This document shows positions 1-41,033 of a stretch of 64,000 nucleotides of DNA, in pieces (the first letter of the stretch is position 1; each line of letters opens with the position of its first letter). A program made the position numbers and the translations under genes. Origin of the DNA: a virus; IMG/VR virus record IMGVR_UViG_3300005573_000057, positions 64,001-128,000 of that record; one strand, given 5' to 3'. The notes under the pieces are model-generated. The model was not told where the DNA came from and ran no database searches. It saw only the letters and a program-made list of their open reading frames with translations.

Positions 1-340
1 CACCGCACCACTCTCCGTAAATCGTAAGTCGATCAAACTCTCCACTAAGCATATTGGCCAAGTCTTTGAAAACTTGTTCTTTTTGAGTGGCGAACAAACA
101 AAATCCAGCATTATCTGATGTAAGCGTCAGGAAACGTTCTCTGGATTGATAGGACAACTCAAGAGGCAGTCCATTTCCCGGATTAAACACATTGACAGCC
201 GCGTTTGTTCCGTGCAACTTAACAGTCCCACGGAACTTCAATTCCGGCAAAGGAAGTACACTTCCTTCGCTGTTCCTTTTCACATTAACGATCACATCAC
301 GAAACTGTTCAATACTTGGAAATTTCTTAAATTCATGCAT
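1..340 (-). CDS. Rnl2-family RNA ligase, partial (runs off the left edge; absent from the ORF track)
   Basis: Manual translation from ATG at 340: MHEFKKFPSIEQFRDVIV...TVKLHGTNAAV...YQSRER...DNAGF...IYGEWCG. It contains nucleotidyltransferase motif I (KxHGTN) and the GEW motif typical of phage Rnl2-like ligases. Confidence 0.8.
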   Translation of the reverse strand, partial: MHEFKKFPSIEQFRDVIVNVKRNSEGSVLPLPELKFRGTVKLHGTNAAVNVFNPGNGLPLELSYQSRERFLTLTSDNAGFCLFATQKEQVFKDLANMLSGEFDRLTIYGEWCG

Positions 341-761
341 ATTGCGTGTGGAACCTCGGCTTTTATGCCGAGTAGGTAGAGCGCAGATTGCTTCGCAATC
401 TTTGCTTTGTGGCGTACCTAAATCACTCTCCATTTTTGCCACAGTTGAATAGGTGGAGGCTTTTCACCCCGCTGGGCCGTGAGGCTCTGCCCGTAAGGGC
501 CTAGTGACGGAGACCTTACGGCCTCGCTCCCCTCGGGAATGTTTGTAACCGGCTCCACCCTTTCGGATGCGGCTAGAACCTTCGGGCCTTTACCTTTGCC
601 CAGCATGATCCCAACCTTCCAGTGTCCGGGACTGAGGAAGCATCCCGGAGTGGGTCTCAACGACCTGTTACAAACGTAGCGGGTTTTCACCGCTTTCCCT
701 GGTCAACCTAGCTATCGACCTTACGGTCTCAAGCTCCGGCCCGAAGGCCGGGGTAGTTGAC
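337..761 (-). mobile_element. Non-autonomous IscB-derived mini-element (left end + omegaRNA + right end, no ORF)
   Basis: About 495-761 is near-identical to the omegaRNA upstream of iscB (20905-21173) and begins GTCAACTACCCC. 343-450 matches the iscB right end (19475-19582). ATGAA follows the right end. Confidence 0.9.
490..761 (-). ncRNA. Stand-alone IscB omegaRNA (HEARO-type) scaffold
   Basis: GTCAAC...GTTGAC terminal helix, GGATGCTTCCTCAGTCC core and GAGGGGAGC motif, as in the iscB-linked copy. Confidence 0.85.
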
Positions 762-794
762 GCATATCCGGCTCCAAAAATTAAAAACATTGTG

Positions 795-1034
795 TCACGA
801 GTTCAAAACTGGCGTAAAATCAACATACATTTCCGTTCCCGGAATGAAATCTTCTGCAACATCTTGTTTGAAAATCCACATTTCAATTGTACCAGAAGGA
901 ACCAACTTGAAGGACTTTTCGTTTTCTTCACTGGTTTCTGCAACTGTCCTTAGTTTGACTTCGGTTCCACAAGTTGTGAACGTGATGTTATCGACTACAA
1001 ATTTCGCTCGTACTTTCATGATTGAATCCTTCAC
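795..1034 (-). CDS. Hypothetical phage protein (VRAKF...PSGTIEMWI...YVDF)
   Basis: 79 aa ORF overlapping the end of spoVR, on the same strand as its neighbours. Confidence 0.65.
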   Translation of the reverse strand: MKDSIMKVRAKFVVDNITFTTCGTEVKLRTVAETSEENEKSFKLVPSGTIEMWIFKQDVAEDFIPGTEMYVDFTPVLNS

Positions 1035-2560
1035 GCTTCCAAGAATGGCCTACCGCGCAATTCACCGATATGACCGCTTAGTGTTTTGGTTCCTTTCTCA
1101 ACCACCGTTGTATCGTCAATCTTTTCGTACTCGGTATCTTTTTTCCGCAGATCAGGAGAAATGAGCCGTACACGATGACCCCACAGAGACTTGATTGCTT
1201 CCAATGTATACAACGCATCCAAAGAGTCAAGTTTACGGGTTTCTTCTTTGTTTGTAAAGTGCTCCAAGAACAAAGTTCGATCCCCTTCTACATCAACCCC
1301 AACCACCTGAATGTCAGGAACCCGATATGATAGACTATGTTGCCTTGAAAGTCTAATCTTGAGTTCGTCCAACATGCGCCCGTTACGCGGAATTTCTCGA
1401 ACTTCAATCAAAGATTCATCGTTATTCATCGAAGTTCCAAACAAACCAAAGTCTTGAGCAACTTCCAACGACAAATATTGAGCAATAAACGATTCGTCAT
1501 TGAAGTTCTGCATTGCATAATTTACTTCGGTCTGCCAGTGTTTTCCAGCTTCTTCTGCTTTCTTCTTAATGTCCATGAACATCTTGAACCCGAACCTGTA
1601 TGGGTTCAGTTGTGATGTGTGCTTGTAAGAATGTTGCGTCAGCACTCCCGAATGACTTGCGTAGAACTCTAGCATAGATCCATCACTAATCAAACCCTTA
1701 TCGTACAACCGATGCATGATGTAGTAATGCGTAAAGGATGCGTAGCCTTCATGCACGATCTGCATTTGACGTTGCGGAAGAAAATATTGACTGATTTTCC
1801 GAACAATGCGGATAATCTCACGTTGCCACGGTTCAAGATTTGGGGCACGCTTTTCAATGAAGTACAGAATGTTTTCTTCTGGTTCCATGTATCCAGGATC
1901 ACGACCACCAACCACTCCATCATTTGCTTTTGAATGATCCATCAATGTATGATGCATCAAGTCAAATTCAGCGACCTTGTCTGTAAGCTTTTTAGGCGAT
2001 CTTTTGCCCCTGCGCCGATACTTATCCACCCCATAGATTTGAATGGCATGGCAAGCGTCCAAGACCCGTTCAACAGTATCTATACCATGTTCGGCTTCGC
2101 ACTTGGTAATGAACTTCTTTGCAAAATCAATGTATGGGATGATGCTTGTCGCATCCGTGTTCTCACGAAAGTAAACGTTGTTTTTATAGACAGCAGAATG
2201 CCCAACACTTGCATGAGCCATCACAAGCGTTTGCATCAAAGCATTGTTGCTTTCCATCAAATAGGCAATGCAAGGGTCTGAATTGATCACCATTTCATAC
2301 GCTAGGCCCATCTTCCCATTTTCATAGTCTTGTTTCTGCACAATGGCGGATTGTCCAAACGACCAGTGTTTGTACATCATTGGCATTCCAGTCGTCACAT
2401 AAGCTTCAAGCATCTGATCGGAAGAAATGATTTCAAACTGTGGCTCATAGTAAGAAATTTCTAATTCTTTTGCTATGATTTCGATTTCATGCCAAATTTT
2501 ATCAAGCATGTCTGGGTTCCAATCTTCCCCCGGTTGAAAAAGCAATTTCGACTTGGCCAT
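1031..2560 (-). CDS. spoVR: SpoVR/YcgB family protein
   Basis: GMPMMYKHWSFG, GLAYEMVINSDPCIAYLME, HASVGHS, YFLPQ...HEGYASF, NPY and VPDIQV motifs; third gene of the prkA-yeaH-spoVR operon. Confidence 0.93.
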   Translation of the reverse strand: MAKSKLLFQPGEDWNPDMLDKIWHEIEIIAKELEISYYEPQFEIISSDQMLEAYVTTGMPMMYKHWSFGQSAIVQKQDYENGKMGLAYEMVINSDPCIAYLMESNNALMQTLVMAHASVGHSAVYKNNVYFRENTDATSIIPYIDFAKKFITKCEAEHGIDTVERVLDACHAIQIYGVDKYRRRGKRSPKKLTDKVAEFDLMHHTLMDHSKANDGVVGGRDPGYMEPEENILYFIEKRAPNLEPWQREIIRIVRKISQYFLPQRQMQIVHEGYASFTHYYIMHRLYDKGLISDGSMLEFYASHSGVLTQHSYKHTSQLNPYRFGFKMFMDIKKKAEEAGKHWQTEVNYAMQNFNDESFIAQYLSLEVAQDFGLFGTSMNNDESLIEVREIPRNGRMLDELKIRLSRQHSLSYRVPDIQVVGVDVEGDRTLFLEHFTNKEETRKLDSLDALYTLEAIKSLWGHRVRLISPDLRKKDTEYEKIDDTTVVEKGTKTLSGHIGELRGRPFLEA

Positions 2561-3795
2561 TACTTGATCCTTTTTGTAAAGAACTTCCTGAACAATGGGT
2601 ATACATCAGCGACGCCTTGCACCATCCCATACGTAAAGTTCTTTGACTTGACAAACTTCTTATAAGTTTGAAGTAAATTCGACTCGGCTAATGAACTTGA
2701 GGAAAACAAACTTAGAGTAGAATCCCCCCAATCAGTTGCCAGATCAATCTCGACATAAAATGCGTAATTGATCAGATCGAGAATTTCGTTCATTGTCTTA
2801 GCTGATTTTCCATCGTCATAAGGCATGTTGTCCCCATCAGACGCTTGTGCAAGATAGACGTTGCTTTTGCCTTTCAGTTTTTTCGCATACTCAAGTGCAA
2901 TCTTGAGCGCAGGGGATACCAGTGTACCACCACTATGCGTAGAATTGAAGAACTCGTTTTGATCAACAACATAAGCCTTATCAGTGTGAGAAATGAATAC
3001 AAGATCGACATTATCGTAATTGCGACGAACAAAATGATACAAAAGCCAAAAAAATCGTTTCGCCACACTCTTTTCATCGTCACCCATAGACCCACTTACA
3101 TCCATGACCATGATGACCGTAGCATGGGTTGACGGTATGGTTTCGATCTTGGATGACCTATAGCGCAAATCCATATCTTCAAACAGCGGAACTTCTTCAA
3201 TGCGGGTCTGAATTTCTTTTCTTTCTTCTTCGGTCAAATTTTCATCAGCAAGTTCATCTTCAATTATACCACGCAGAACCAACTGGCGAGTGAATCCATT
3301 GATGTATGACCGGACGATATGCAGGCGCGACGGGGTTCCTTCTGTCTGAAACCCTGCATTTGTGCGTCTTGTTTCCTCAACTTTTGAAAGTTCCTGTCTA
3401 ACAAGATCAGGCAGTTCCATCCCGTCAAAGAACAAATCCAGAAATTCTTCGGCACTCAAATGCACACTGAATTCATCACCTTCACCAGCATCATCCCCAC
3501 CACTACCACCGCTTCGATCAATGTGAAGCACATCCCCAGGAACAAACTGATCATTTCCAGGGAGAACCAAATCCCACGATCCACTTCCGTCACGATGGAT
3601 GTTTGGTTCTCGCATCAGCTTGTCCCAGGGAACTTTTACGTCAACTCCTTTTTTCCCAATGTCCTGAATGTCCTGATCTTTGATAGCATCATTCACCCGC
3701 TGCTTCATGACTCCCCGAATGCGCCGCAAGTAACGCTCACGCGAACTAATGGTTCTATCCGGGGTAGCCCTACGTCTATCAATGATGATTGCCAT
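2560..3795 (-). CDS. yeaH: YeaH/YhbH (DUF444) vWA-domain protein
   Basis: IIDRR N-terminus, PGNDQFVPGD, DLRYR, MIDAS-like MDVSGSM, SGGTLVS and QASDGDN. Confidence 0.93.
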   Translation of the reverse strand: MAIIIDRRRATPDRTISSRERYLRRIRGVMKQRVNDAIKDQDIQDIGKKGVDVKVPWDKLMREPNIHRDGSGSWDLVLPGNDQFVPGDVLHIDRSGGSGGDDAGEGDEFSVHLSAEEFLDLFFDGMELPDLVRQELSKVEETRRTNAGFQTEGTPSRLHIVRSYINGFTRQLVLRGIIEDELADENLTEEERKEIQTRIEEVPLFEDMDLRYRSSKIETIPSTHATVIMVMDVSGSMGDDEKSVAKRFFWLLYHFVRRNYDNVDLVFISHTDKAYVVDQNEFFNSTHSGGTLVSPALKIALEYAKKLKGKSNVYLAQASDGDNMPYDDGKSAKTMNEILDLINYAFYVEIDLATDWGDSTLSLFSSSSLAESNLLQTYKKFVKSKNFTYGMVQGVADVYPLFRKFFTKRIK

Positions 3796-3808
3796 GACAA
3801 GGGTTCCT

Positions 3809-5728
3809 TTAATTACTATACTTGGCCCGCAGGAAGAACTCGACCAGAATACGAGTTTGGCGCGGAGTGTAGTTCAACTTTTGCATCTGTGCGACAAAAT
3901 CGTTGTGCTTCTTGGTTTCTTCTTCTGTGCGCTTCGGGGTAAATGCGATCACCGGCAGAATATCCGCTGTACTTGCCAGGACATTCTTTTCGATGACCAG
4001 ACGCATCTTTTCAAAACCGTTCCATGCTGGCATCTTGCCTTTGTTTGCACCCTTGTAGCGAACGATGAACATTGCTACATCATTACGGAAATCCTTCGGG
4101 TTACTGATTCCGGCAGGCTTTTCCATCTTTTCGAGTTCGGCGTTCAACGCAGCACGATCCAACATCAGACCAGTATTCGAGTCACGGTACTCCTGATCAC
4201 TCACCCATGCGTCTGCATAGTAGAAGTATCTTTCAAACATATTCTGGCACAAATCTTGGAAGCTATTCAAGAATGAGGCACGAATATCCTTTTCCAGAAA
4301 CTCCATGTAATTTTCCATCAGAGTGCCATCAAGGATGGTCAAAAGTTCCTGTTCCTTTTCTTTTCCAAGCTGTTCTTCACTGATACTGCGCTTGAGGACG
4401 TACATCAAATGAATCGGGTTCGCCGCAATTTCCTCAGTATCATAGTTGAAAGTCTTGGACAGAATCTTAAAAGCAAACCGAGTGCTGATTCCGTTCATCC
4501 CTTCCTTAACCCCAGCAGCATCCTTGTATTCCTGCAAGGGCTTTGCTGTTGGATCTTCTTGTTTCAGATTTTCACCGTTGTAGACGCGCATCTTCACATA
4601 CAAAGGCGAATTTTCTGGTTTGACCAACCGACTCATGACCGCAAATTGCGCCATCGTTTCCAATGTTCCTGGAGCGCAAGGCGCAGTCGCCAAGGCGCTA
4701 TTTGACAGGAGTTTCTTGTAAATCTTGACTTCTTCGTCAACCCGAGTTACATAAGGAACCGACACAAGATAGACCCGATCCAAGAACGCTTCATTGGTCT
4801 TGTTATTACGAAAAGCTTCCCATTCACTTTCGTTGCTATGAGCAATAATAATGCCGTGGAAGGGCATATTACCAATGGCCTTAGTACCTGTATACATATG
4901 CTCTTGTGTGGCCGTGAGCAACGGATGGAGCATCTTGATTGGCGCTTTGAACATTTCCACAAACTCAAGCACACCGTTGTTTGCCCGATTCAAGCCGCCA
5001 CTAAAGTTGTAAGCATAGGGATGGTTTTGAGAATACTTGCCAACCATACGAATATCCAGTTCCCCAACCAGCGTGGAAATATCTTGGTTGTTTTCGTCAC
5101 CAGGTTCGACCCGAGCGATGCAGATTTGGTGAAGCCGACTTGGATAGACCTTGCGAACTTTGAACTGCGACAGATCCCCCTTGAATTCCTTGATCTTTTC
5201 AATTGCCCACGGACTCGGAACATTCTTGAAAAGCATAGCAGGAAGGCCAAAAATTTTAGATGCATCAGGTTGATTAAAGAACAACCCAAATGGAGTTTCA
5301 AAGACTGGAGACCCATCTAGGATATAAACAGGTTCCTTTTCGGCCAATTCTTTGATTTTCTCGGCCAATGTGCTCTTACTAGAGCCAACAGGCCCCAACA
5401 AGTACAGGATTTGCTTTGCTTCTTCAAGCCCCTGTGATGCATGTCGAAAATAGGCGACAATTTGGTCAATTGTATCTTCCATCCCATAGAAATCAGAAGA
5501 AAAGGATGGATAGACCCGAATGATTCGGTTTTGAAAAATGCGCGAAAGGTGAGGATCGTTTTTGGTATCCAAAAGTGTCGGTTCACCGATTGCTTTAAGA
5601 ATTCGTTCTGCTGGGGAAGCATACAAAGACGGATCTGAAACACACCGTTCCATAAAATCCTCAAGGCCAATGACTTCATCGTCAAACTGAGTTGAAAGTG
5701 CTTGTGTGAATGTATCGAGTTTACTCAT
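3809..5728 (-). CDS. prkA: PrkA/YeaG AAA+ ATPase (annotated serine kinase)
   Basis: Walker A LLGPVGSSKS, EPGDENNQDISTLVG, GGLNRAN, EFVEMFKAPIKMLHPLLTATQE and NEAFLDR. Confidence 0.95.
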   Translation of the reverse strand: MSKLDTFTQALSTQFDDEVIGLEDFMERCVSDPSLYASPAERILKAIGEPTLLDTKNDPHLSRIFQNRIIRVYPSFSSDFYGMEDTIDQIVAYFRHASQGLEEAKQILYLLGPVGSSKSTLAEKIKELAEKEPVYILDGSPVFETPFGLFFNQPDASKIFGLPAMLFKNVPSPWAIEKIKEFKGDLSQFKVRKVYPSRLHQICIARVEPGDENNQDISTLVGELDIRMVGKYSQNHPYAYNFSGGLNRANNGVLEFVEMFKAPIKMLHPLLTATQEHMYTGTKAIGNMPFHGIIIAHSNESEWEAFRNNKTNEAFLDRVYLVSVPYVTRVDEEVKIYKKLLSNSALATAPCAPGTLETMAQFAVMSRLVKPENSPLYVKMRVYNGENLKQEDPTAKPLQEYKDAAGVKEGMNGISTRFAFKILSKTFNYDTEEIAANPIHLMYVLKRSISEEQLGKEKEQELLTILDGTLMENYMEFLEKDIRASFLNSFQDLCQNMFERYFYYADAWVSDQEYRDSNTGLMLDRAALNAELEKMEKPAGISNPKDFRNDVAMFIVRYKGANKGKMPAWNGFEKMRLVIEKNVLASTADILPVIAFTPKRTEEETKKHNDFVAQMQKLNYTPRQTRILVEFFLRAKYSN

Positions 5729-5769
5729 TGTTTTGCTCCATTACTAAGTCGGGGTGTGAACAAGTTAGT

Positions 5770-6351
5770 CTAGTGTTTGACGCCAGCAGCGATCATTAGT
5801 GCATCCAAAACAACATCATGAACAGGGTTTTGTTTCATAATGTCGTCAACATCCATATATTGAGGATCAATATCGGTAACTCCTTTTGGGACACTGTACA
5901 ACAAATTAACGGCAGTCCGAGTATCCATATAACGCCAAAACGGGATAAAATTACTCCCAACATCCTTACTCAATGATGCAGAAACGACCTGTGAAAGATG
6001 CCCACGAGTCCAAACAAAAAAGTCTTCATTAGGCAGCAATCGAGAATAGATGTAATCTTGAATTTCTCCAAGCGCAGCTTTACAAGTTGTTGGCTGGGGA
6101 TATTTTTTGGATTCCCCCAAACTAACTTCTTGCACTTCTTTTGGAAGGGTTTTCCAAAACTCAACCGTAGCAGGATCAATTACACGGTCTCCGACTTGCT
6201 CCGAAGTATCAAACTTCACAAGTAATGTGTCTTCGACCAACTCACTGAACAACTTTGGGGTTTCAACGTCAAACTCGACAATTGCAGCACTCACAACGAC
6301 CGAGCGTTCGGATAGCCCCAAAGTTTTGACATTATAAGAAAACATTTTCAT
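5770..6351 (-). CDS. DexA-like DEDDh exonuclease homologue with substituted catalytic residues
   Basis: Overall DexA pattern (xTLG..S VVS, T.EFW, WxRG, FWRYMDTRTAV, NPVHDVVLDALM), but ExoI reads NVK instead of DVE. Confidence 0.7.
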   Translation of the reverse strand: MKMFSYNVKTLGLSERSVVVSAAIVEFDVETPKLFSELVEDTLLVKFDTSEQVGDRVIDPATVEFWKTLPKEVQEVSLGESKKYPQPTTCKAALGEIQDYIYSRLLPNEDFFVWTRGHLSQVVSASLSKDVGSNFIPFWRYMDTRTAVNLLYSVPKGVTDIDPQYMDVDDIMKQNPVHDVVLDALMIAAGVKH

Positions 6352-6614
6352 TTTATGATACCTTGCGTTTCGAACAAATGTTCAACATACAACGATGCAC
6401 CCTTTTCGTCATTCATATTAAAAAACCGAACCGAATAGGACTCGTCCATTTTATTAGTTTCATCAAAAGCAATAATACAAATGCTGTTCATTTCTTTGAT
6501 CAAACTAACACTAACACGGAGATTTCCGCGTTTATACGGCCCCAAACTTTGAATAACAAACGCGATCTTTTTTGGGTTTTCGTGTTGCATGTAAACATCA
6601 ATGTTTGTTTTCAT
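6348..6614 (-). CDS. Hypothetical protein
   Basis: ORF from MKTNIDVY, overlapping regA and the dexA-like gene. Confidence 0.6.
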   Translation of the reverse strand: MKTNIDVYMQHENPKKIAFVIQSLGPYKRGNLRVSVSLIKEMNSICIIAFDETNKMDESYSVRFFNMNDEKGASLYVEHLFETQGIIK

Positions 6615-7050
6615 AATGTCGCGGTTTATCGCCCCCGATTTTGTACTTAGCAATGATGTTCCAGTCTTCCTTTTCTTCGTAGGACAACACAGTTAGACGA
6701 CTGAGTTCACGACGCATAATATCATCCGTGGCGCGAATGGCTGGATTCACGATCTTGATCAGTCCCCATTGCTCCAACAATGTTGCGATACAATTGCGAC
6801 GCTGTGCATCCCCAACAGTCATTGTTGTAGAGCGACCATCTAGGGCAAAAAGTTCTTTGAAGTGAACGATGTAGTATCGACCGCGCTTATGCAAAATGTG
6901 TGCAGTTTGCGTTAGCGATTTGTTCGCTTTACTGGCTATGCCGATGCGTGACAAAGTTTCCCGGACAGTCAAGAAACTGCCATCTGTCAAAAGCTTGACC
7001 TCCACCATGTCATCAGGTGTCCAATCAAATAAAAGTTCAGTAGTAATCAT
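6598..7050 (-). CDS. regA: Translational repressor RegA
   Basis: FLTVRETLSRIGIAS, HILHKRGRYYIVHFKELF, RRNCIATLLEQWGL; T4-like synteny with the clamp loader genes. Confidence 0.95.
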   Translation of the reverse strand: MITTELLFDWTPDDMVEVKLLTDGSFLTVRETLSRIGIASKANKSLTQTAHILHKRGRYYIVHFKELFALDGRSTTMTVGDAQRRNCIATLLEQWGLIKIVNPAIRATDDIMRRELSRLTVLSYEEKEDWNIIAKYKIGGDKPRHYENKH

Positions 7051-7053
7051 GAT

Positions 7054-7452
7054 TTATCCTCGTTTAGATTTCAAACCACCCATGTTTGTATAGGTATCTA
7101 CAATTTTCTTCATTTGCTCGTTAGTTAGCAAGCCCTCCACTTCTTGCGCCTTTTTGATACTCATTCCAAAAACCTTTGCTATCAGGCTGACATTTTCCGA
7201 AACCTTGTCCTTCTTACCCCACTCAATATACTTCTTCGCTGTTTTCGGCATCGCATGTCGGTAAAACATGAACTGATCATGCTTTGACAGCGTTGAGTGC
7301 CGATTCATAGATTCAGCATAAAACAGGCAATCCCTACGTTGCGAAAGTGCTCGGTTGACAAGGAACGGATTGTACGCCGCTTCTAACTCGTCAGACCATT
7401 CGACGTTCTTTGTTAGAATATCGCTGATCAAGCCAAAAATGTCAAGCGCCAT
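7054..7452 (-). CDS. gp62: Clamp loader small subunit gp62
   Basis: YNPFLVNRALSQ..DC..YA..MN motif; start taken at MALDIF. Confidence 0.9.
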   Translation of the reverse strand: MALDIFGLISDILTKNVEWSDELEAAYNPFLVNRALSQRRDCLFYAESMNRHSTLSKHDQFMFYRHAMPKTAKKYIEWGKKDKVSENVSLIAKVFGMSIKKAQEVEGLLTNEQMKKIVDTYTNMGGLKSKRG

Positions 7453-7846
7453 TTTTATCTGTCCCAGACAAAACAACCACCAAGCCAACATCGTGTCGCA
7501 AGTAAACACACAATGCTTCCCTGACCTTTTGACCGGCAGCATTCACTGCCAACTCCATCGGTTCCATGATACTAGAAGGAGTAGAATACAAAGAATGAAC
7601 AAAAGTTCCGGTTTCCTTGTCACGAACAATATTCAAAATTTCAGTGACCCCATCGTGTTGTGTCTCCACAGTTTCAGTTTCGGCAAACCACATTGCCATC
7701 CCATTCACGAATTTGACTTTGACTTGTCGATCCTCATAAATGCTCAACGTAACTTCCTTCTGCCTGTTGAAATACCTGACAACACCAGCCATCACAAACA
7801 TCAAAAAAATAGAATAAACAAGATATGAAACGATAATTTCAAACAT
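7442..7846 (-). CDS. Hypothetical protein with N-terminal transmembrane helix
   Basis: Hydrophobic residues 3-24; inserted between gp44 and gp62. Confidence 0.65.
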   Translation of the reverse strand: MFEIIVSYLVYSIFLMFVMAGVVRYFNRQKEVTLSIYEDRQVKVKFVNGMAMWFAETETVETQHDGVTEILNIVRDKETGTFVHSLYSTPSSIMEPMELAVNAAGQKVREALCVYLRHDVGLVVVLSGTDKNGA

Positions 7847-7855
7847 TTTTCTTCC

Positions 7856-8815
7856 TTAAAATTTAACTACGCCCATGATTTCAGTCAAACATGCTGTTGT
7901 ACAAATTTCTTGATCGGCACTGAACGAAGACTTAAACTGATAGTCGGCAAGAAGCAAAATTATATCAGGCAAACATTCAGGACGAACAGTATCTTGCAAA
8001 ATCTTGTAAAACTGCGTATAGAGTGATGATACATCAATATCTGAGTTTCGCCCAACCCATTTACGCATGCTAGAGAAATTTTTATCACGCAATGCGGTCA
8101 GTAGATCATCAAAAACTCCAATATCGTTATCATTCAAAACACTCGAATCAATCGTATTGTCGGTAGCATGACGTTGCAACGAGTTCAGAGTGCGCCTAAA
8201 ATCTGGAAAGTTCTTCGAAATGAGAGCAGCCAGAGACTTTTTATCGTAGGTCGTAACTCCTTCCTGATGTAGAATCTCCATACTACGAACCATCATTTCC
8301 TTTGCTAACACAGCCTTTTCGTTGCTTGGAATCTTAAAGTCAACGACAGTGCAACGACTGTGAATCGCTTCCGAAATCATGCTCTTGAAATTGCATGTAA
8401 AGATAAACCGAGCATTCGAACTAAATTCTTCCAAAGAACCATTCAAGGCTTTTTGCGCTGCTTGTGAAATGTGATCCGATTCATCCAAAATCACAATCTT
8501 TTTTGAATCTGTCAAACTAACCGTTGAGCAAAACTGTCTAATCTGATTCCGTATCATGTCAATGCCGTTTTCTTCGGCAGCTTTGACAAACAACACATCA
8601 GCACCAATTTCACTGGCAAGCGCCCGCGCAACTGTAGTCTTTCCACTTCCGGGAGGGCCAGCTAGAAGGAAATGAGGAATTTCACCCTTATCGACATATC
8701 CTTGAAAGAGTGCCTTCAAATTTTCGGGGATGATACACTCAGAAATCGTTTTGGGCCTATACTTCTGTGCCCACAAAAATTCGTCTGGGTTGATCGAAAT
8801 TGTTACATCTGTCAT
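7856..8815 (-). CDS. gp44: Clamp loader large subunit gp44
   Basis: LWAQKYRP, Walker A GPPGSGKTT, ILDESD, SRC and FPDFRR. Confidence 0.96.
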   Translation of the reverse strand: MTDVTISINPDEFLWAQKYRPKTISECIIPENLKALFQGYVDKGEIPHFLLAGPPGSGKTTVARALASEIGADVLFVKAAEENGIDMIRNQIRQFCSTVSLTDSKKIVILDESDHISQAAQKALNGSLEEFSSNARFIFTCNFKSMISEAIHSRCTVVDFKIPSNEKAVLAKEMMVRSMEILHQEGVTTYDKKSLAALISKNFPDFRRTLNSLQRHATDNTIDSSVLNDNDIGVFDDLLTALRDKNFSSMRKWVGRNSDIDVSSLYTQFYKILQDTVRPECLPDIILLLADYQFKSSFSADQEICTTACLTEIMGVVKF

Positions 8816-8836
8816 GATTTATCCTTGTCGCATTTT

Positions 8837-9443: not shown

Positions 9444-9450
9444 GTCAATG

Positions 9451-11042: not shown

Positions 11043-11400
11043 ACGTTGGATGAATAGGGATATGACTCAGAAGCGCATTCCCAAGCTTATGAGATCCACG
11101 AATATCATAGAAATATTTCAAATAGTCTGCCACTCCATAAATGTCGTGGTTCCCCTTGACCAAAATCTTCTTGCCGTTCATCCTACCAAACGCCTCAAGT
11201 CCTTTTTTGGTCATTGATACATCACCCAACACATAAACTTTATCGTATTGCTTTACCACGGCATTCCAACGCTCAATCATGTCCGATTCCATATCGGACA
11301 AATTTGTCCACGGACGAATCAATGCATCGTTGTCATCACGAAAAGTCACGATGCGTGGATGCCCAAAATGTAGATCGGCAGTAAGAAAACAGTTACTCAT
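10846..11400 (-). CDS. Calcineurin-like metallophosphoesterase
   Basis: DLHFGH, LGD, GNHD, HIP and HGHLH. Confidence 0.9.
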   Translation of the reverse strand: MSNCFLTADLHFGHPRIVTFRDDNDALIRPWTNLSDMESDMIERWNAVVKQYDKVYVLGDVSMTKKGLEAFGRMNGKKILVKGNHDIYGVADYLKYFYDIRGSHKLGNALLSHIPIHPTSIATWCVGNVHGHLHSRRVLLPDGSVDPRYLCVSVEHTDYTPIAFEDALERLRIQQGDTTGQTCQ

Positions 11401-12416: not shown

Positions 12417-12420
12417 GACC

Positions 12421-34530: not shown

Positions 34531-34619
34531 TGGTACACGGAACGGGAGTCGAACCCGTATGACCTATTAAAGTCGGTGGATTTTAAGTCCACTGTGTCTA
34601 CCAATTCCACCACCCATGC
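34531..34619 (-). tRNA. tRNA-Leu(UAA)
   Basis: Cloverleaf with long variable arm, anticodon loop CT-TAA-AA, GGTTCGAC and encoded CCA. Confidence 0.9.
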
Positions 34620-34660
34620 ACTGAATTACTTACTACAAGTAGTTCTACTACAATTATAGT

Positions 34661-34736
34661 TGGTGCCGGATACAGGAATCGAACCCACGACCTCCAACTT
34701 ACAAGGTTGTTGCTCTACCAACTGAGCTAATCCGGC
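34661..34736 (-). tRNA. tRNA-Thr(UGU)
   Basis: GCCGGAT acceptor, loop CT-TGT-AA and encoded CCA. Confidence 0.9.
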
Positions 34737-34765
34737 ACATTCCAAGACAAAGATCAATGATTGAA

Positions 34766-34794
34766 ATCATACCAAACTTTCAATCCCATGTCAA
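34766..34794 (-). promoter_or_regulatory. Sigma70 promoter TTGACA-17-TATGAT for the Thr/Leu tRNAs
   Basis: Near-consensus; 30 nt upstream of tRNA-Thr. Confidence 0.75.
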
Positions 34795-34818
34795 GAACAT
34801 GGGATATAGAAGCATGCT

Positions 34819-35922
34819 TCACAGGGCGAAATCTAAAACTTCATCACCAACATCGTGCTCGACCATGCCTAGCATATAGTTTGCAGGTTTTTCTTCTTGG
34901 GGGCTAGACTGCATCTTACCCATATCAATCCATTTTTCCATAAACTTTAGTGGATTTTTTTCAGGAAAGGCATAAGCGCAGTCGATTTCAAAAAATTTAT
35001 AGACTTCCATAGAGGAAAACAAAACAAACGAGAAAAGTTTATCACTGGTAAGGCCCGGAAACTCTCGGTTGTCAGAAAGAATATATTCGGCCCATTCTTT
35101 CTCTGTTTCAACGACCAAATCTACCATTTCTTTAATTTTAGGTTTAAGTCGGTACAAAGCTTCTGAACCTCTTGGTGTCGATTTTTCAATTTTCAAAATT
35201 TCATAGTCTGCCAGAGAATGAATTTCATATTCATCTTGGGCGATTTTTTGCACAGCTTTACCAATTGGCATAAACTGTCCGGTCTCTGCCACGGCAAAAG
35301 TAACTGCGAAGGAAGAAATAAATTGGATACGCTCCAAGATATACATCGCAGCCATGTACAGAATCACCGAATCGTAGACTGCTGGATCGTCTTTGGCGAG
35401 TAGCCCAAGAGCAAGTTGATGTGAAATCACATAAGTTTTCTCTAGGGCATCCGTGATAGGCTTTAGGCGATGATGGGCTTCTTTGACTTTGAGAATTTCA
35501 TCCAATATGTCGTCCGGGTTGTCAAAAGAAGTTCTGACAATCTCGGAGTATGTAAAGGAATGCAAACTCTCGTTTTCGCCAATGCGCTGCCACAAAGCCC
35601 AAAGTTCGGAACTACTCGTGATATTTGCGCCAATACCTGCAACCGACCGACTGACTACACTGTCGGCTTCCCATTGCCAAGCAAGTGTTTTAATCATAAT
35701 ATCGTAGGTATTCTTATCGCAAATTTGAAACTCACGCTTACAACTGGAAAAATTAAACTCGTTTTCATCCCAATCCAAAGCTTTGAGTTTTTTGTAAAGA
35801 TTCCATAGTTTAGGATACTGTTTATTGATGGTATCAACTAGACCCGGAGACTGCCCCAAAAACAAAGGAGTCTTCTTATACTCAGAGTAATTCAAGTTAA
35901 TAATGGATGATGGTAAGTTCAT
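34819..35922 (-). CDS. nrdB: Ribonucleotide reductase class I beta subunit
   Basis: W...E, DS, ENESLH..TY, LERIQF..SF and IAQDE..IH. Confidence 0.93.
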   Translation of the reverse strand: MNLPSSIINLNYSEYKKTPLFLGQSPGLVDTINKQYPKLWNLYKKLKALDWDENEFNFSSCKREFQICDKNTYDIMIKTLAWQWEADSVVSRSVAGIGANITSSSELWALWQRIGENESLHSFTYSEIVRTSFDNPDDILDEILKVKEAHHRLKPITDALEKTYVISHQLALGLLAKDDPAVYDSVILYMAAMYILERIQFISSFAVTFAVAETGQFMPIGKAVQKIAQDEYEIHSLADYEILKIEKSTPRGSEALYRLKPKIKEMVDLVVETEKEWAEYILSDNREFPGLTSDKLFSFVLFSSMEVYKFFEIDCAYAFPEKNPLKFMEKWIDMGKMQSSPQEEKPANYMLGMVEHDVGDEVLDFAL

Positions 35923-35938
35923 AAAAGTCCTTTGTATG

Positions 35939-38191
35939 TTACAGGGTACAAACACCAGACTCACAACCGACACTTTCGGGTGTCGAGTCACGTTCATCGT
36001 CAGATGTTAAACTATTAGTGTAATACTTACTCTTTAGCCCGTATTTGATCATGGTTAGATAAAGATCGAGCATTTCCTTGGTTTTGATACTAATGTTGGC
36101 TGTTCTGTCTCGGAACAGATCTGCACTGATGGACTGATCAGTAAATTTTTGAATGATTGCGTAAAATTTGACAAGATCAATTTCTGAAATATCCCAAGCT
36201 CTTTGATAGGACTGATTCATCAAGTCACCATCTTTAGCACACCACTCAACCGCGTTGGTGCCGTCTGTTTTCTTCAAAGCCAAACCACGGATAGGATACA
36301 GCCCGTTAGGAACTCCAGAAGCCTTGGAAGAAGATTCGCTTGGCATATGAGCGATCAAACTTGAAAAACGAATACCGCCATTATCAATAATCTTTTTTCT
36401 CAAATTCTCCCAATCGTACTGATAGGAAGGTTCAACAAGTTCGTCTACACTTTTGTTATAGGTATCAATAGGCAACCATCCTTGAGGCCATTTTGTTTTG
36501 TGTATCCAAGGAGCATTTCCTTTTTCCATACCCAATTTCAGGGCTTGGTTGATAGCATGCCACGCATGGCGTTCAGCAACTTTGTGCGCAAAAGCAAACC
36601 CTTCGGGCGTATCGAATTTTTGATTGTTTTCTGCCATGAGGGTAGCTAGGCCAATGATTCCAACCGCTGCATTGCGACGCATCTTTGTCGTGTATTCTAC
36701 GTGTGGCAGTTCATAATCGCTAATTTCAATACATTGATCAATCATTTCTAAGCAATGATACATGGCCGAAGCATAGGTTTCTTCGTCATGAATATTGCAA
36801 ACGACAATGCCGCCGATGGTACACTGAGAGACTTCACCACGTTGATGATCTTCCTTCTTAAACAGATCTTCCATCGACTCGTATGGGGCAGTTGGCTGAA
36901 CAATCTCTGCACAAAGATTCGAGCTATAGATAGGATCTATATAAGAAGTGTGGCGATTGACTTCATCAATTGATAGATGATATACAGTGGATACATCGTA
37001 AAATTGCCCGATAAATTTAAGGGCCAATTTACGCGCATTGAAGTATTTCTTTTTGAAATTAGGATCGTTTTCGTATTTTTCGTAAATAGCTTTGAAAGTG
37101 TCAATGTCTCCACTATAAAAGGCTTTGTGTAAATCGGGAGCAGATTTAACATTAAAATGAAAACATTCTTTGTTTTCAATGACTTTCTGAGCAAAAAATT
37201 TATTAGTCAGAATACCAAAATGCAAGAGTCGGTTTTGAACATCAACCGTAGTCTTTGGGTTTTGTAGCATTGTAATGGTTTCTGCCTCGGGATCAAAGCA
37301 ACTGTAATAAACCGTACATGCGCCACCCCTAGACCCTTGTATGTTCGCACGGACAGCGCCAGCAAGTGATCGGTAATATGGCAGCTTTCCTTGGTGCGAA
37401 ATAGCTCCATTGCGCACACTATCACCTACCGAACGGCACATAACGTTGCTTCCGATTCCGGCAGACATATAAGTCTGTGTATAAGCAATGAAATCCCCAA
37501 TCGCCAACGACCTAGCCGAGTCCCCAGCCGCATACAAACAGCAAGAGGCCAACCCATGATGAGGGGTGCCTAGATTGACATAATTTGGGGTAGGTGCGTT
37601 GATTCGGTTAAAAGACAGATGATCATAAAACTCTTTAACATATCGAAGTTTAACATCGGGACTCTTGTTAGCGTGAATCGCCATAGCCATTCGCATATAG
37701 ATAACCTGCGGGGTCTCATAAGCTTGACCTGTTTTTCGGTTTTGCAGTGAATACTTATGTGACATATAGCGAATTTGAAAAAACGCTAGATTAAAGTCCC
37801 TATTATGATCAATGATTTTTTCAATGGCTTCATATTCTTCTTCGGAGTAGCCTAGATCAACCATCAGTCCCAGGTCGATAAGGTTTTTATGGATCTCCTT
37901 TAAAGGAGGAATCTGGTCTCCGTAAATATCTTTTCGCAGTACCGCGCTGTACAAACGCCCCGCCATAATTTGATAAGGCCAAGAATCTCGGCCCAAACAA
38001 ACATCAATGAGTTTTTTCTGTAAATCTTGGGAAGAAATTTCTTCTGGACACTCTTTAATGGCGTCTAAAACAACACCACTCCAATCGACACGATCACTAA
38101 TATGTTCAGAAGCCCACATACTCCACTTGTTAAGTTTACTAGGATCGAAATTTTCAATAAACTGATTTCTTTTAATAATTTTTTTTAGCAT
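35939..38191 (-). CDS. nrdA: Ribonucleotide reductase class I alpha subunit
   Basis: N-terminal ATP cone, PTP, ASCC, SNLCAEI, MPSESSS, DQSISAD, YY and C-terminal CESGVC. Confidence 0.95.
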   Translation of the reverse strand: MLKKIIKRNQFIENFDPSKLNKWSMWASEHISDRVDWSGVVLDAIKECPEEISSQDLQKKLIDVCLGRDSWPYQIMAGRLYSAVLRKDIYGDQIPPLKEIHKNLIDLGLMVDLGYSEEEYEAIEKIIDHNRDFNLAFFQIRYMSHKYSLQNRKTGQAYETPQVIYMRMAMAIHANKSPDVKLRYVKEFYDHLSFNRINAPTPNYVNLGTPHHGLASCCLYAAGDSARSLAIGDFIAYTQTYMSAGIGSNVMCRSVGDSVRNGAISHQGKLPYYRSLAGAVRANIQGSRGGACTVYYSCFDPEAETITMLQNPKTTVDVQNRLLHFGILTNKFFAQKVIENKECFHFNVKSAPDLHKAFYSGDIDTFKAIYEKYENDPNFKKKYFNARKLALKFIGQFYDVSTVYHLSIDEVNRHTSYIDPIYSSNLCAEIVQPTAPYESMEDLFKKEDHQRGEVSQCTIGGIVVCNIHDEETYASAMYHCLEMIDQCIEISDYELPHVEYTTKMRRNAAVGIIGLATLMAENNQKFDTPEGFAFAHKVAERHAWHAINQALKLGMEKGNAPWIHKTKWPQGWLPIDTYNKSVDELVEPSYQYDWENLRKKIIDNGGIRFSSLIAHMPSESSSKASGVPNGLYPIRGLALKKTDGTNAVEWCAKDGDLMNQSYQRAWDISEIDLVKFYAIIQKFTDQSISADLFRDRTANISIKTKEMLDLYLTMIKYGLKSKYYTNSLTSDDERDSTPESVGCESGVCTL

Positions 38192-38375
38192 TTTTTTACC
38201 AGCAATGAAAGAAAGTAATGGTTAGAAAAAGAAAAACCCCTCGAACAAGGGGTGGTCTATGATGTACAGAAAGATCAGAAAATCTTACAAGTTTGGTGAC
38301 TACTTGCGGCATTGATTATCAAATTGGTCTACAAGGTCATGAAAAGTGAACGCGAAATCCAAAAATTCCTTTTTT

Positions 38376-39672
38376 TTGACATCCTCCCCGGCCCGAAGGC
38401 CGAAGATTCCTACTGCGCTACACGATAATTTGTGTAGTCACTTCGGCGGGTTCCTGCTTCACAGAACGGCCTTGCTGCACCGATTCTCCACAGGCTAACA
38501 AGCGAAATCCTCGCTCTAAAATATTGATTGCACCGACTAGATCGGCGTTTTCCTCATACCCACAGTCCACACATGCAAACTTGGCTTGTGTCTGGCGATT
38601 CTCTGCCGACACACAACCGCAGTCCGGGCAAGTCTGACTGGTGTAATGAGCCGGAACTGCAAGCAGAATGCCACCGTTCCAAGCCATTTTGTATTCCAGT
38701 TGTCTCCTGAATTCGCTCCATCCTTGATCGAGGATCAAATGGTTCAGACCGGATTTTTGTCTGACTTTCTTGCCGTGTTGTTCACTATTGCCCTTTGAAG
38801 ACTTGGACATATTCCGTACCTGCAAATCTTCAATAACAATCATAGCGTGGTTTTTGCTGATCATTGTTGAGGCTTTATGCAGGAAGTCTTTCCGGGCATT
38901 GGCGATACTGCTGTAAATCTTCTGGACTTTGGCCTTCGCCTTTTTCCAGTTACTACTGAACTTAACTTTGTGACCCATTCGCCGCTGGTATTTTTTCAGG
39001 CGCTTCTCATGTTTCTTGAAACTGTTAAGCGGTTTAATATAGCTACCATCGCTCAATGTAGCGAAGCGAGTAATGCCCATGTCGATACCAACGGCAGTTG
39101 TGGCCGTTGGAACAGGCTGTTCGACTTCACGTTGCGTCTGAATCGAGGCAAACCACTTTCCTGCCACCTGACTTACCGTGACATTTCGCAGTTCGCCTAG
39201 AACATCACGACTGTTGCGGTAGCGCAACCAACCAAGTTTAGGCAGGAAAATACGGTCATTGGTCTGATCAAGCTTAATCTTTTTAGGGTCAGGATAACGA
39301 AAACTGACGTGTTGATCTTTTTTCTTGAACTTTGGAAAATTTGCACGTTTAGCAAAGAAGTTCTTGTAAGCGCGTTCTAAGTCTTTAAGCGTCTGTTGCA
39401 ACGGATGCACAGGAGCATCCCCGAGCCACGGCGTTTCCGTTCCATTGCGCCAACCAGTCAAGTGCTTCGTCATAGAAAAGTAGCCGATGAACTTGTTCCC
39501 AGCTTCGTGATTTTCTTTCTGCAACGCCAAAGCCTTGTTATAAACAAACCGGCACGACCCAGCGAAGCTACGCATTTTGCGTTGCTGTTCGCCATTCGGC
39601 ATCAGTTCGTATTTGTAAGCTTGTAGACGTTTCATAACTTTATTATACTAGGTCTATGGTTCAAAAGCAACA
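38376..39672 (-). mobile_element. IS605-family tnpB element 3, left-end hairpin missing
   Basis: Right end as in element 1; homology to the element 1 left end stops after the TTGCTT-17-TATAAT promoter. Confidence 0.82.
38418..39635 (-). CDS. tnpB: TnpB RNA-guided endonuclease (paralogue of 22926-24143)
   Basis: Intact RuvC D/E/D and zinc finger; long identical stretches with TnpB 1. Confidence 0.95.
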   Translation of the reverse strand: MKRLQAYKYELMPNGEQQRKMRSFAGSCRFVYNKALALQKENHEAGNKFIGYFSMTKHLTGWRNGTETPWLGDAPVHPLQQTLKDLERAYKNFFAKRANFPKFKKKDQHVSFRYPDPKKIKLDQTNDRIFLPKLGWLRYRNSRDVLGELRNVTVSQVAGKWFASIQTQREVEQPVPTATTAVGIDMGITRFATLSDGSYIKPLNSFKKHEKRLKKYQRRMGHKVKFSSNWKKAKAKVQKIYSSIANARKDFLHKASTMISKNHAMIVIEDLQVRNMSKSSKGNSEQHGKKVRQKSGLNHLILDQGWSEFRRQLEYKMAWNGGILLAVPAHYTSQTCPDCGCVSAENRQTQAKFACVDCGYEENADLVGAINILERGFRLLACGESVQQGRSVKQEPAEVTTQIIV

Positions 39673-39693
39673 TCTAAACTATGACGGCGAAAA

Positions 39694-39786
39694 TGGCGGG
39701 AACCGTGAGACTCGAACTCACACGCCCCTTTCGGGGCCTTCGGTTTTCAAGGCCGCTGCCGCTAGTCCAACTCGGCTTAGGTTCCC
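39694..39786 (-). tRNA. tRNA-Ser(UGA)
   Basis: Long variable arm, loop CT-TGA-AA and GCCA end. Confidence 0.88.
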
Positions 39787-39795
39787 AATTCTAAA

Positions 39796-39885
39796 TGGTC
39801 TGTGTGGTAGGATTTGAACTTTTATTCAAAAGTTAAAGCAAACTTACATTTTACACCTAAAAGAAGTGGTTTTAGGTGTAATCGG
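39796..39885 (-). pseudogene. 3' fragment of a tRNA-Pro copy fused to a decayed IS605 left end
   Basis: 39796-39819 repeats the T-arm and acceptor of 40008-40031; 39820-39885 aligns with 33037-33103. Confidence 0.7.
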
Positions 39886-39894
39886 TTAGATAAT

Positions 39895-39981
39895 TGGTGG
39901 GTTGCCAGGGAGTCGAACCCCGTTACTCCGTAGAGCGTCTGATTTACAGTCAGGTGCATTCGCCAGTGATGCTCGCAACCC
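39895..39981 (-). tRNA. tRNA-Tyr(GUA)
   Basis: Loop CT-GTA-AA, long variable arm and CCA. Confidence 0.88.
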
Positions 39982-40007
39982 AAAAATCGTGAAAATTAGT
40001 TTTCTAA

Positions 40008-40085
40008 TGGTCTGTGTGGTAGGATTCGAACCTACGACAACTCGGCTCCAAACCGAGGACTCTGGCCAGACTGAGCTACACACAG
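40008..40085 (-). tRNA. tRNA-Pro(UGG)
   Basis: C1-G72, loop TT-TGG-AG and CCA. Confidence 0.9.
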
Positions 40086-40108
40086 GTACAAATGACATTG
40101 AAACAACT

Positions 40109-40182
40109 TGGAGCGACAACTGAGAATCGAACTCAGGTTAGTAGATTGGAAATCTACAGTTCTACCATTGAACTACTGTCGC
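40109..40182 (-). tRNA. tRNA-Gly(UCC)
   Basis: GCG acceptor start, loop TT-TCC-AA, U73 and CCA. Confidence 0.9.
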
Positions 40183-40188
40183 AAATCT

Positions 40189-40264
40189 TGTTGGAACTAG
40201 TCGGATTCGAACCGACGACCTTCTGCTTACAAAACAGATGCTCTACCTTCTGAGCTATAGCTCC
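40189..40264 (-). tRNA. Atypical tRNA: Ala-type body, UGU anticodon, ACA end (probable pseudo-tRNA)
   Basis: GGAGCTA/TAGTTCC acceptor, loop TT-TGT-AA; 3' end reads A-ACA. Confidence 0.6.
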
Positions 40265-40300
40265 AATTCGTTTAATTATTAACAACACTCAAAATTCAAA

Positions 40301-40376
40301 CGGTTGCGGGAGTGGGATTCGAACCCACGGCCTCCGGGGTATGAACCCGGCGCTCTACCAACTGAGCTATCCCGCG
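40301..40376 (-). tRNA. Initiator tRNA-fMet(CAU)
   Basis: C1:A72 mismatch, three G-C pairs in the anticodon stem, CAT anticodon; ends CCG. Confidence 0.85.
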
Positions 40377-40400
40377 AAAAAATGTTTGTACTACTCTTTA

Positions 40401-40429
40401 ATTATATCCCACAAACTAACCAATGTCAA
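40401..40429 (-). promoter_or_regulatory. Perfect sigma70 promoter TTGACA-17-TATAAT for the tRNA cluster
   Basis: Exact consensus 25 nt upstream of tRNA-fMet. Confidence 0.88.
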
Positions 40430-40656
40430 TCTTTATTTAGCTCGGCTTTCAAAGCAATCACACTAGGAAAATCATCGGCCATATTATCAGAAAGATTTGC
40501 CAGATCCCAACCACGAAGGTAAGCATCCAACAACTTATCCACACCACGTTCAGCCACTACGCACCTACGAAGGAAATCATGATTCAGTGCAGGAGCACGC
40601 CCTTTGCCAGCTTTGAAAGCATCAACACCGGCCTTGAATGCATCGTTTACGTTCAT
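40426..40656 (-). CDS. Hypothetical early protein (MNVNDAFKAG...)
   Basis: RBS GGAG; starts at the ATGAA next to the mini-element. Confidence 0.7.
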   Translation of the reverse strand: MNVNDAFKAGVDAFKAGKGRAPALNHDFLRRCVVAERGVDKLLDAYLRGWDLANLSDNMADDFPSVIALKAELNKD

Positions 40657-40997
40657 AGCAATCTCCATTTTTGCCACAGTTAAAAGGTGGGAGCTTTTCA
40701 CTCCGCCGGGCCGTGAGGCTCTGCCCGTAAGGGCCTAGTGACGGAACCTTTCGGTTCGCTCCCCTCGCCAATGTTGTAACGCAGCTTCGTCCTTTAAGGG
40801 ACTTGCGACAAGCTGTTTCGTGCGTACCCTATGCTTGTCTACTCCTGCCGCTTGCAGAGCAATGGACTGAGGAAGCATCCATTGGTGCGTCTTGTACTTC
40901 GTTACAACGTAGTCACGATGTTTTGTGACTGAGGCTGGTCAACCGAGCTATCGACCTTGCGGTTTCTAGCTCCGGCCCGAAAGCCGGGGTAGTTGAC
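40657..40997 (-). mobile_element. IscB mini-element with divergent omegaRNA core and deleted right-end hairpin
   Basis: 40936-40997 matches the iscB left end; 40662-40745 matches 428-510; the middle is a different omegaRNA variant. Confidence 0.85.
40725..40997 (-). ncRNA. Stand-alone omegaRNA, second subtype
   Basis: GTCAAC/GTTGAC helix, CTACGTT, GGATGCTTCCTCAGTCC and ACATTGGCGAGGGGAGC. Confidence 0.8.
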
Positions 40998-41033
40998 ATC
41001 AATCTCCATTAGTTTCGATCAACCTACAACTGA

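Follow-up and report, generated by a model that had tools for sequence, protein, structure and literature searches.

The closest described counterparts of the insertions reported here are ISGst5 of Geobacillus stearothermophilus, with its nuclease GstIscB (10.1101/2023.03.14.532601; Nature 622:863), and the ISC2 transposons of Halomonas (ISC2-1_HM) and Marinobacter sp. ELB17 (ISC2-1_MS and ISC2-2_MS; PMC4810608). In ISGst5 the right end of the element provides the scaffold of the guiding omegaRNA and the guide lies outside the element; palindrome-associated transposable elements (PATEs) exist beside it (10.1101/2023.03.14.532601). The target-adjacent motif (TAM) of GstIscB, established by chromatin immunoprecipitation sequencing (ChIP-seq), a TAM library and plasmid interference, is TTCAT, placed 5' of the left end; single-base changes in it abolish cleavage, and the motif at the right end differs from it at positions 3 and 5 (10.1101/2023.03.14.532601). 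The ISC2 elements have GTCA at their 5' terminus and N|ATGA as target (PMC4810608). Here we describe a stretch of viral DNA of 64,000 nucleotides (the window, bases 64001-128000 of the 140,449-bp IMG/VR virus record IMGVR_UViG_3300005573_000057, the record being about 79% complete) with four related insertions, one of which carries an iscB gene. These insertions probably form one family of ISC2 transposons of the IS200/IS605 superfamily in a lytic T4-like hot-spring phage, consisting of an intact IscB-omegaRNA element and protein-less deletion derivatives.

The four units, all read on the minus strand, are named E1 (337-761), E2 (13002-13147), E3 (19472-21173) and E4 (40657-40997), and their kinship was shown by BLAST and MAFFT. 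Each of the four is directly followed by ATGAA (336-332, 13001-12997, 19471-19467 and 40656-40652, respectively), and GTCAA(C/T)TACCCCGG opens every unit that retains its 5' end. HEARO, the omegaRNA family of IscB (RF02033), is matched over the full model (1-211) and above the Rfam curated cut-off at 521-761, 20932-21173 and 40754-40997, in all cases on the minus strand. The omegaRNAs of E1, E3 and E4 are full-length, and compensatory changes keep their structure across relatives (34 of 77 pairs in E3). The omegaRNAs of E1 and E3 are 90.9% identical over 275 nt, E4 and E1 share 75% over 348 nt, and the left-end parts of the units are 82-86% identical. It is hardly conceivable that this arrangement is an assembly artefact or a set of chance repeats. 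Repeats can mislead assemblers, and nothing further speaks for such an origin, whereas the same junctions are found in independent ENA, JGI and Logan assemblies of several samples, the covariance-model matches exceed the curated cut-offs and the motif statistics argue against chance. The coordinates given in the original prediction, made from the letters of the window alone, hold almost to the base for all four units, with the abutting ATG being a start codon at three sites and lying 4 nt into the RNA ligase gene (rnl) at the fourth.

The iscB element and its natural empty allele

E3 is a complete, non-autonomous IscB-omegaRNA transposon that runs from its right end at 21173 to its left end at 19472 and comprises a right-end hairpin, the omegaRNA, iscB and a left end with the hairpin CTCGGC-N6-GCCGAG. 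Both hairpins are subterminal (21165-21148 at the right end and 19505-19488 at the left end) and there are no terminal inverted repeats. The omegaRNA scaffold (20905-21173, minus strand) begins with GTCAAT, includes the right-end hairpin and scores 98.3 bits with HEARO over 20932-21173. The iscB open reading frame (ORF; 19437-20885, minus strand) encodes 482 amino acids with an RRXRR domain (PF14239, 4.7e-67) and an HNH domain (PF01844, 4.3e-14); the catalytic motifs IDPGS, EHIHP and HALDA are present, the RuvC and HNH motifs being intact, and solved IscB structures in the PDB match the product at 1e-28 to 3e-41. No stop codon closes this frame inside E3. It crosses the left end and terminates at a TGA 35 nt into the next gene (19437-19471), and the C-terminal tail of IscB therefore depends on the insertion site. 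The segment GGATTAACGATTTTTA (21174-21189, minus strand), which is the end of the RNase H gene (rnh), lies immediately 5' of the scaffold and would serve as guide according to the model of Meers 2023, in which the guide is placed outside the right end. On the other side, the ATGAA at 19467-19471 (minus strand) contains the start codon of a DUF6433 gene.

In these features E3 closely follows ISGst5, both being non-autonomous IS605-family elements with the omegaRNA at the right end, a flank-derived guide, TTCAT as TAM 5' of the left end, PATE relatives and the same orientation as the upstream gene. The right-end motif of E3 (the transposon-encoded motif, TEM) is TTGAC, which differs from TTCAT at the same positions 3 and 5. 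Unlike ISGst5, and as judged by element features, E3 is found in a lytic T4-like phage without TnpA in the record and replaces 10 nt instead of being scarless (see below). With the ISC2 elements it shares the 5' terminus GTCA and the insertion directly before ATGA without target duplication, and its IscB belongs to the same proteobacterial clade, in which ELB17 is represented by one of the loci compared here (L245). Identity to this IscB is 58-65% for the proteins of the Halomonas group (Halomonas, Vreelandella) and of Marinobacter, including ELB17, and reaches 75% in the best bacterial relatives, which come from metagenome-assembled genomes of Pseudomonadota. Start codons, guide RNAs and phages are not discussed by Kapitonov, Makarova & Koonin 2016 (PMC4810608).

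A natural empty allele allowed the edges of E3 to be placed exactly to the base, in agreement with the original prediction. Logan contigs of three runs were placed on 2301-22300, and in one run (X1) a joint from 19471 to 21174 was seen at a depth of 7.25, compared with 9.1 for the filled path and 14.6-16.7 for the flanks, with ten other letters between the two sides. A JGI contig (L099), found by exact match to the product of the downstream gene, reads ...GATTTTTA AGGAAAGATT ATGAATC... and is 100% identical to the window over 127 nt upstream and 1840 nt downstream. The natural empty site is TTTTTA-AGGAAAGATT-ATGAATC, that is TAA-GGAAAGATT-ATG, with the ribosome-binding site AAGGAAAG between the rnh stop codon and the ATG; the DUF6433 gene is called from this same ATG in the empty allele. 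E3 therefore takes the place of 10 nt, the ribosome-binding site among them. Removal of the element had been predicted to regenerate a TAATG overlap; the arithmetic is right, but the natural empty site has 10 more bases. Filled and empty alleles coexist only at the E3 site; the empty one is present in two independent assemblies, and in one sample approximately 55% are filled and 45% empty.

The empty allele shows no target-site duplication, as usual for the IS200/IS605 superfamily, but the replacement of 10 nt is atypical. On the plus strand the replaced bases end in TTCCT, one base from the TAM, so that each edge of the replaced piece has a TAM-like pentamer on its 5' side. The position of these pentamers hints at aberrant cleavage by TnpA, and alternative boundary motifs are described by Meers et al.; an extinct TAATG allele is an equally open account. 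A gapped pattern of the empty site gave no match in the JGI metagenome contigs searched, although the allele exists in JGI 3300027863, and this result is therefore no evidence against a TAATG allele. Slippage between direct repeats was also considered as the cause of the 10-nt loss and was rejected, as no repeat yields the observed junction.

The empty allele also bears on homing. In L099 the 16-nt match to the resident guide is followed by AGGAAA, not by ATGAAN, and ATGAAT is placed 10 nt further on. This allele has no guide match with a TAM behind it, and for GstIscB a single-base TAM change is enough to abolish cleavage. The identity of the flanks leaves no co-conversion marker to score. 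Three further Logan joints (13120 to 21111, 19584 to 20910 and 21173 to 2301) were examined as possible rearrangements and discarded, being explained by cross-mapping of the E4 and E1 copies, which lie outside 2301-22300. A separate contig of run X1, at a depth of 12.6, has a joint from 9398 to 19481 that brings an IscB-type left end next to a 49-nt copy of the promoter region 9350-9398; this joint probably marks a further insertion at a locus that the record does not contain, either in the phage or in a relative.

The ORF-less copies and the genes behind them

E1 is a complete ORF-less mini-element (337-761, minus strand) with an omegaRNA (505-761, 107.5 bits with HEARO), a linker (approximately 445-500) and a left end with its hairpin. 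It is a deletion derivative, in which a linker of about 45 nt takes the place of iscB and connects the final omegaRNA hairpin with the terminal ~110 nt of the element. The ATGAA that follows (332-336, minus strand) forms codons 2-3 of rnl (ATG CAT GAA). The upstream flank ends in ...GGAGCCGGATATGC and the element in ...CAATATGC, and the last four bases of E1, ATGC, rebuild the ATG C of rnl that was split by the insertion.

E2 (13002-13147, minus strand) is a 5'-truncated relic with the linker hairpin and the left end, and aligns only to the last ~138 nt of E1 (linker and left end). The original prediction of a family of omegaRNA mini-elements stands for E1 and E4, which carry an omegaRNA; 13002-13147 has none, which leaves two orphan guides and not three. 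The ATGAA at 12997-13001 (minus strand) contains the start codon of a hexapeptide-repeat (YdcK-like) cassette gene, and seven paralogous cassettes show the intact site ...AAGGAGTTGGTC|ATGAACAAGTA (N|ATGAAC). The right half of E2 and the promoter of its cassette have been deleted. At 13087-13106 an upstream ORF of 69 amino acids reads into the relic and stops at a TGA; 5 nt before this stop stands an ATG in the reading frame of the downstream cassette gene, which is a translational-coupling layout.

E4 (40657-40997, minus strand) is 3'-truncated, with a diverged but intact omegaRNA (93.1 bits with HEARO) and the linker, and without the left-end hairpin; it ends after AAAATGGAGA and is followed by the start codon of a 76-aa gene (ATGAA at 40652-40656, minus strand). 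Its guide region AATGGAGATTGAT (40998-41010, minus strand) is repeated with one mismatch at the 3' junction (AATGGAGATTGCT, 40657-40669), and the 13-mer AATGGAGATTG(A/C)T is found twice, ahead of the element and at the truncated 3' terminus. The simplest origin that we can infer is a recombination between a filled and an empty genome at an 8-nt match, AATGGAGA, common to the interior of the element and the native leader; through this event the left end would have been lost and the native GGAG-6 nt-ATG regained. The 16-nt guide of E4 matches its own 3' junction (40672-40657) at 13 of 16 positions, followed by a perfect ATGAAC, with one mismatch 2 nt from the TAM; apart from this self-junction, no guide match with at most three mismatches followed by ATGA was found among the matches listed. 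About 30 nt before the scaffold there is a sigma-70-like promoter, TTGACT-16-TATAAT (41034-41061, minus strand), with 11 of 12 consensus positions, which is part of the promoter-leader module of the cassettes. Only E4 has a promoter-like site of its own; transcription of the other two omegaRNAs, those of E1 and E3, would have to come from read-through, a situation described by Meers et al.

The linker is common to E1, E2 and E4 and absent from the iscB copy E3. A small hairpin within it (GRRG-loop-CYYC) shows two compensatory pairs across five copies, and the same linker recurs at unrelated sites in the metagenomic mini-elements L229 and L230, so that the ORF-less form has spread as its own lineage, as had been proposed. 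E1 is the only copy that shows the defining feature of PATEs, both transposon ends without a protein gene, and it resembles the omegaRNA-carrying PATEs in this respect and in belonging to a lineage found elsewhere. E2 and E4 differ from them, the former having no right end and the latter no left-end hairpin, and neither can now be mobilised by TnpA.

Hexapeptide-repeat cassette genes are located at 13972 and 41039 of the window and at five further sites of the record, with a common promoter-leader module TTGACT...TATAATTCAGTTGTAAACATTGATAAGGAGTTGGTC|ATGAACAAGTA. This module provides seven paralogous N|ATGAA sites, and E2, E4 and a fifth relic all lie within it. The fifth relic is placed at 43184-43240 (plus strand) of the genome, 20.8 kb before the window, and consists of the first ~57 nt of the omegaRNA scaffold (GTCAACTACCCCGG...) fused to the remnant of a hexapeptide-repeat cassette gene and its promoter.

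The repaired junctions could also be read in favour of a function, namely that the orphan ends have been domesticated as leader modules that serve the expression of the downstream gene (as structure of the 5' untranslated region, as in-frame rescue start or by translational coupling) and not the targeting of DNA. From an internal ATG (aaaATGgag) a stop-free frame runs into the downstream gene in E1, E2 and E4, the ORF upstream of E2 stops 5 nt past that ATG, the end of E1 rebuilds the start of rnl, E4 has the native GGAG-6 nt-ATG leader, and several relatives show GGAGG 4-6 nt ahead of the abutting ATG in the variable tip of the left end. Repairs that do no more than make a selfish insertion tolerable would be expected to look the same. 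Since the open frame descends from the C-terminal tail of IscB, its phase alone is informative (about 1 in 3 per copy), and this explanation gives no reason for the conservation of the whole 240-nt omegaRNA fold. We therefore regard it as quite unlikely, and the preferred reading of the copies as selfish insertions with local repairs is retained.

The state of these sites in the population differs from that of E3. The assemblies that contain the E1, E2 and E4 sites are ERZ27247228 and ERZ27247235 (ENA), 3300027863 and 3300002182 (JGI) and SRR5248875 (Logan), and in these five no empty allele of E1, E2 or E4 was found, all sites being filled. Exact-protein look-ups with the rnl product and the products of the 76-aa gene, the cassette gene and a 74-aa gene likewise returned filled alleles only. 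The search for empty alleles proposed in the original prediction thus succeeded at the E3 site, although with a different junction, and gave none at the other three. Two alleles of the omegaRNA at the E1 site from other samples (L108 and L109) are 97.9% and 92.4% identical to the window copy, with 300 nt of identical flank, so that the RNA module has been exchanged faster than its surroundings; the second of them is a mosaic with hairpins like those of E3 and of L084, the closest viral relative. The closest omegaRNA to that of E4 is found in a bacterial locus (L232, 83%), and the closest to that of E3 in L258 and L084 (84%). The mini-elements appear old and fixed, and the IscB copy a recent polymorphism.

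This distribution has to be set against the original prediction that the one IscB of the phage could use, besides its own omegaRNA, those of E1 and E4 in trans and cut the empty sites of co-infecting relatives, as multi-locus homing or exclusion. The omegaRNAs of both orphans are full-length, above the Rfam cut-off and supported by compensatory changes, the E1 scaffold is 91% identical to that of E3, and a near-consensus promoter lies ~30 nt upstream of E4. The E4 guide matches its own junction at 13 of 16 positions beside a perfect ATGAAC, and the mismatch close to the TAM could be an escape from self-cutting. Action of PATE omegaRNAs in trans has been proposed by Meers (10.1101/2023.03.14.532601), TnpB-driven and TnpA-independent spread is reported for plasmids, and homing between co-infecting phages has been proposed (review PMC13565253). 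Nevertheless, with no empty E1, E2 or E4 allele in the five assemblies such a system would find no target in this population, E2 is without any guide RNA, the E4 scaffold is just 75% identical to that of E3 and groups with another IscB sub-lineage, and the own guide of IscB meets no TAM in the extant empty allele. Moreover, about 45% of the genomes in one sample lack iscB, yet E2 has no empty form there and E1 and E4 have none in any assembly, so the orphans appear to persist without the nuclease. Multi-locus homing or exclusion is therefore possible but finds no support here, and we consider such a multi-guide system unlikely, with more distant relatives as the setting in which it may still act. 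Just as doubtful is the broader idea of an RNA-guided arsenal, in which a polymorphic IscB, armed in trans by stand-alone omegaRNAs of which one is promoter-driven, cuts or binds the start-codon junctions of co-infecting relatives. If it were true, the empty rnh allele, with its 10-nt spacer and AGGAA for ATGAA, would be a natural drive-resistant allele and the mismatch at the E4 junction a scar of the escape from self-cutting.

Target motif and gene starts

The proposal that the TAM of this IscB is ATGAA agrees with what is known for the family, as ATGAA is the reverse complement of TTCAT, the TAM of GstIscB, and contains the ISC2 target N|ATGA. Bacterial relatives were counted as 22 distinct loci with a recognisable left end (23 are listed, L235 being a duplicate of L233), and ATGA follows the left end in 22 of 22, the fifth base being A in 14, G in 5, C in 2 and T in 1. 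Among twelve viral relatives, nine have ATGA (ATGAA 4, ATGAG 1, ATGAC 3, ATGAT 1) and the others ATGG (2) or ATGT (1), and three of three further metagenomic copies have it as well (ATGAA twice and ATGAG once). These counts support ATGA(A) as the TAM and target. A scan of IMG/VR with a 16-mer left-end pattern gave chance matches only, hairpin plus internal motif being present in 0 of 80. In L084, whose IscB is 73% identical, a second left-end-like terminus at 150-220 stands directly before the IscB element (...CCCGGGTTTTCCGCGCAATGTG|GTCAAC); an incoming copy that landed at the ATGA abutting a resident one would give just such a tandem layout.

The association with gene starts holds up and extends across the family. 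In the window the abutting ATG is the start codon at three of the four sites. Of the 580 ATGAA sites in the 140-kb record, 491 fall within coding sequence; among the remainder, 41 (7% of all sites) are first-ATG starts of predicted ORFs and 48 are intergenic in other positions. ATGAA opens 26% of the 157 predicted ORFs. In 15 of the 22 bacterial relatives an ORF of 60 amino acids or more begins at the abutting ATG, compared with 28% of control ATGA[AG] sites, and several viral relatives abut ORFs of 118 to >964 amino acids. In relatives, the short variable stretch that separates the conserved left-end core from the abutting ATG often includes GGAGG, 4-6 nt from the ATG, which looks like a replacement ribosome-binding site.

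It had been suggested that the TAM steers the insertions to translation starts. Under random choice among all ATGAA sites, at least three of four insertions at starts would be found with P ~0.001; if the choice is restricted to non-disruptive sites (approximately 89 outside coding sequence, 41 of them gene starts), the same outcome is expected about one time in four. Loss of in-gene insertions is therefore sufficient, and no special steering is needed to explain the association.

Phage setting, mode of insertion and meaning of the polymorphism

The window encodes T4-type genes on the minus strand, including rnh (21173-22060), rnl (ending at 340), a gp45-like clamp and PhoH, and the sequencing runs that contain the record are hot-spring metagenomes. 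A transfer-messenger RNA (tmRNA) and seven tRNAs are encoded at 41921-42235 and 34534-40376, the tmRNA matching the betaproteobacterial and permuted types with 148 and 152 bits; this set, together with the nearest IscB relatives, would fit a host among the Pseudomonadota. The search for near relatives gave no match among GenBank phages, and the RNase H relatives in IMG/VR are only ~35% identical, so that no cross-species empty sites are usable. Four intact tnpB (OrfB_IS605) frames of 403-409 amino acids are also present, three in the window on the minus strand (22926-24143, ~32190-32510 and ~38799-39143) and one at 135870-136172 of the genome on the plus strand. Like iscB, they occur without any Y1 transposase in the record, in a phage loaded with OMEGA nucleases.

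For the insertions themselves, the reading as one ISC2 family with protein-less derivatives remains the probable one, and it implies the following course of events. A Y1 TnpA acting in trans, presumably from the host, would insert the element in single-stranded form 3' of TTCAT, which on the coding strand puts it directly before ATGAA. By analogy with GstIscB, the IscB protein, guided by the flank-derived 5' end of the omegaRNA, would read the same motif as TAM, and its cutting of a rejoined or empty site would let recombination restore or copy the element. With 85% of the ATGAA sites inside genes and about a quarter of the genes starting with ATGAA, the insertions that survive would be those at start codons. 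Later local changes would then repair the expression of the downstream gene, the end of E1 regenerating the ATGC of rnl and a native leader with its ribosome-binding site replacing the left end of E4. A benefit to the phage need not be assumed.

Three observations weigh against this account. No match to PF01797 (Y1 TnpA), and so no donor of the transposase, was found in the 140-kb record, itself 79% complete. After a clean insertion by TnpA, the 10 nt AGGAAAGATT would be expected next to the right end of E3; as they are missing, the element must have come in by a different route or have undergone one or more additional events. Finally, alleles at the E1 site that differ by up to 8% and an E4 with an intact omegaRNA behind a promoter represent more turnover than is expected of inert relics.

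A further comparison is offered by the free-standing homing endonucleases of T-even phages (Seg, Mob), in which, as here, a nuclease gene is wedged between conserved phage genes and filled and empty alleles are found in one population, and by the TnpB-driven spread of IS605 elements in plasmids (PMC13565253). Unlike for Seg and Mob, recognition would be RNA-guided, the only empty allele seen is no match to guide plus TAM, and no co-conversion tract is visible, the flanks being identical. The kind of element, its target and the idea of trans-acting PATE omegaRNAs are known already. New are the setting in a T4-like phage, the natural polymorphism of filled and empty alleles with a non-cognate empty allele, and the repair footprints.

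The locus thus represents a natural, base-resolved case of an IscB element present or absent in an otherwise identical lytic phage population, with older orphan omegaRNA copies beside it. It may serve as a test bed for the question of whether OMEGA nucleases act as homing endonucleases between phages, a role put forward in reviews and demonstrated until now in plasmids alone. The resident guide should not cut the persisting empty allele, and resistance to a drive would look like this. The counts from the phage and from bacteria add to this the observation that an IscB clade with the complement of ATG in its target lives at start codons and repairs the translation signals that it displaces.

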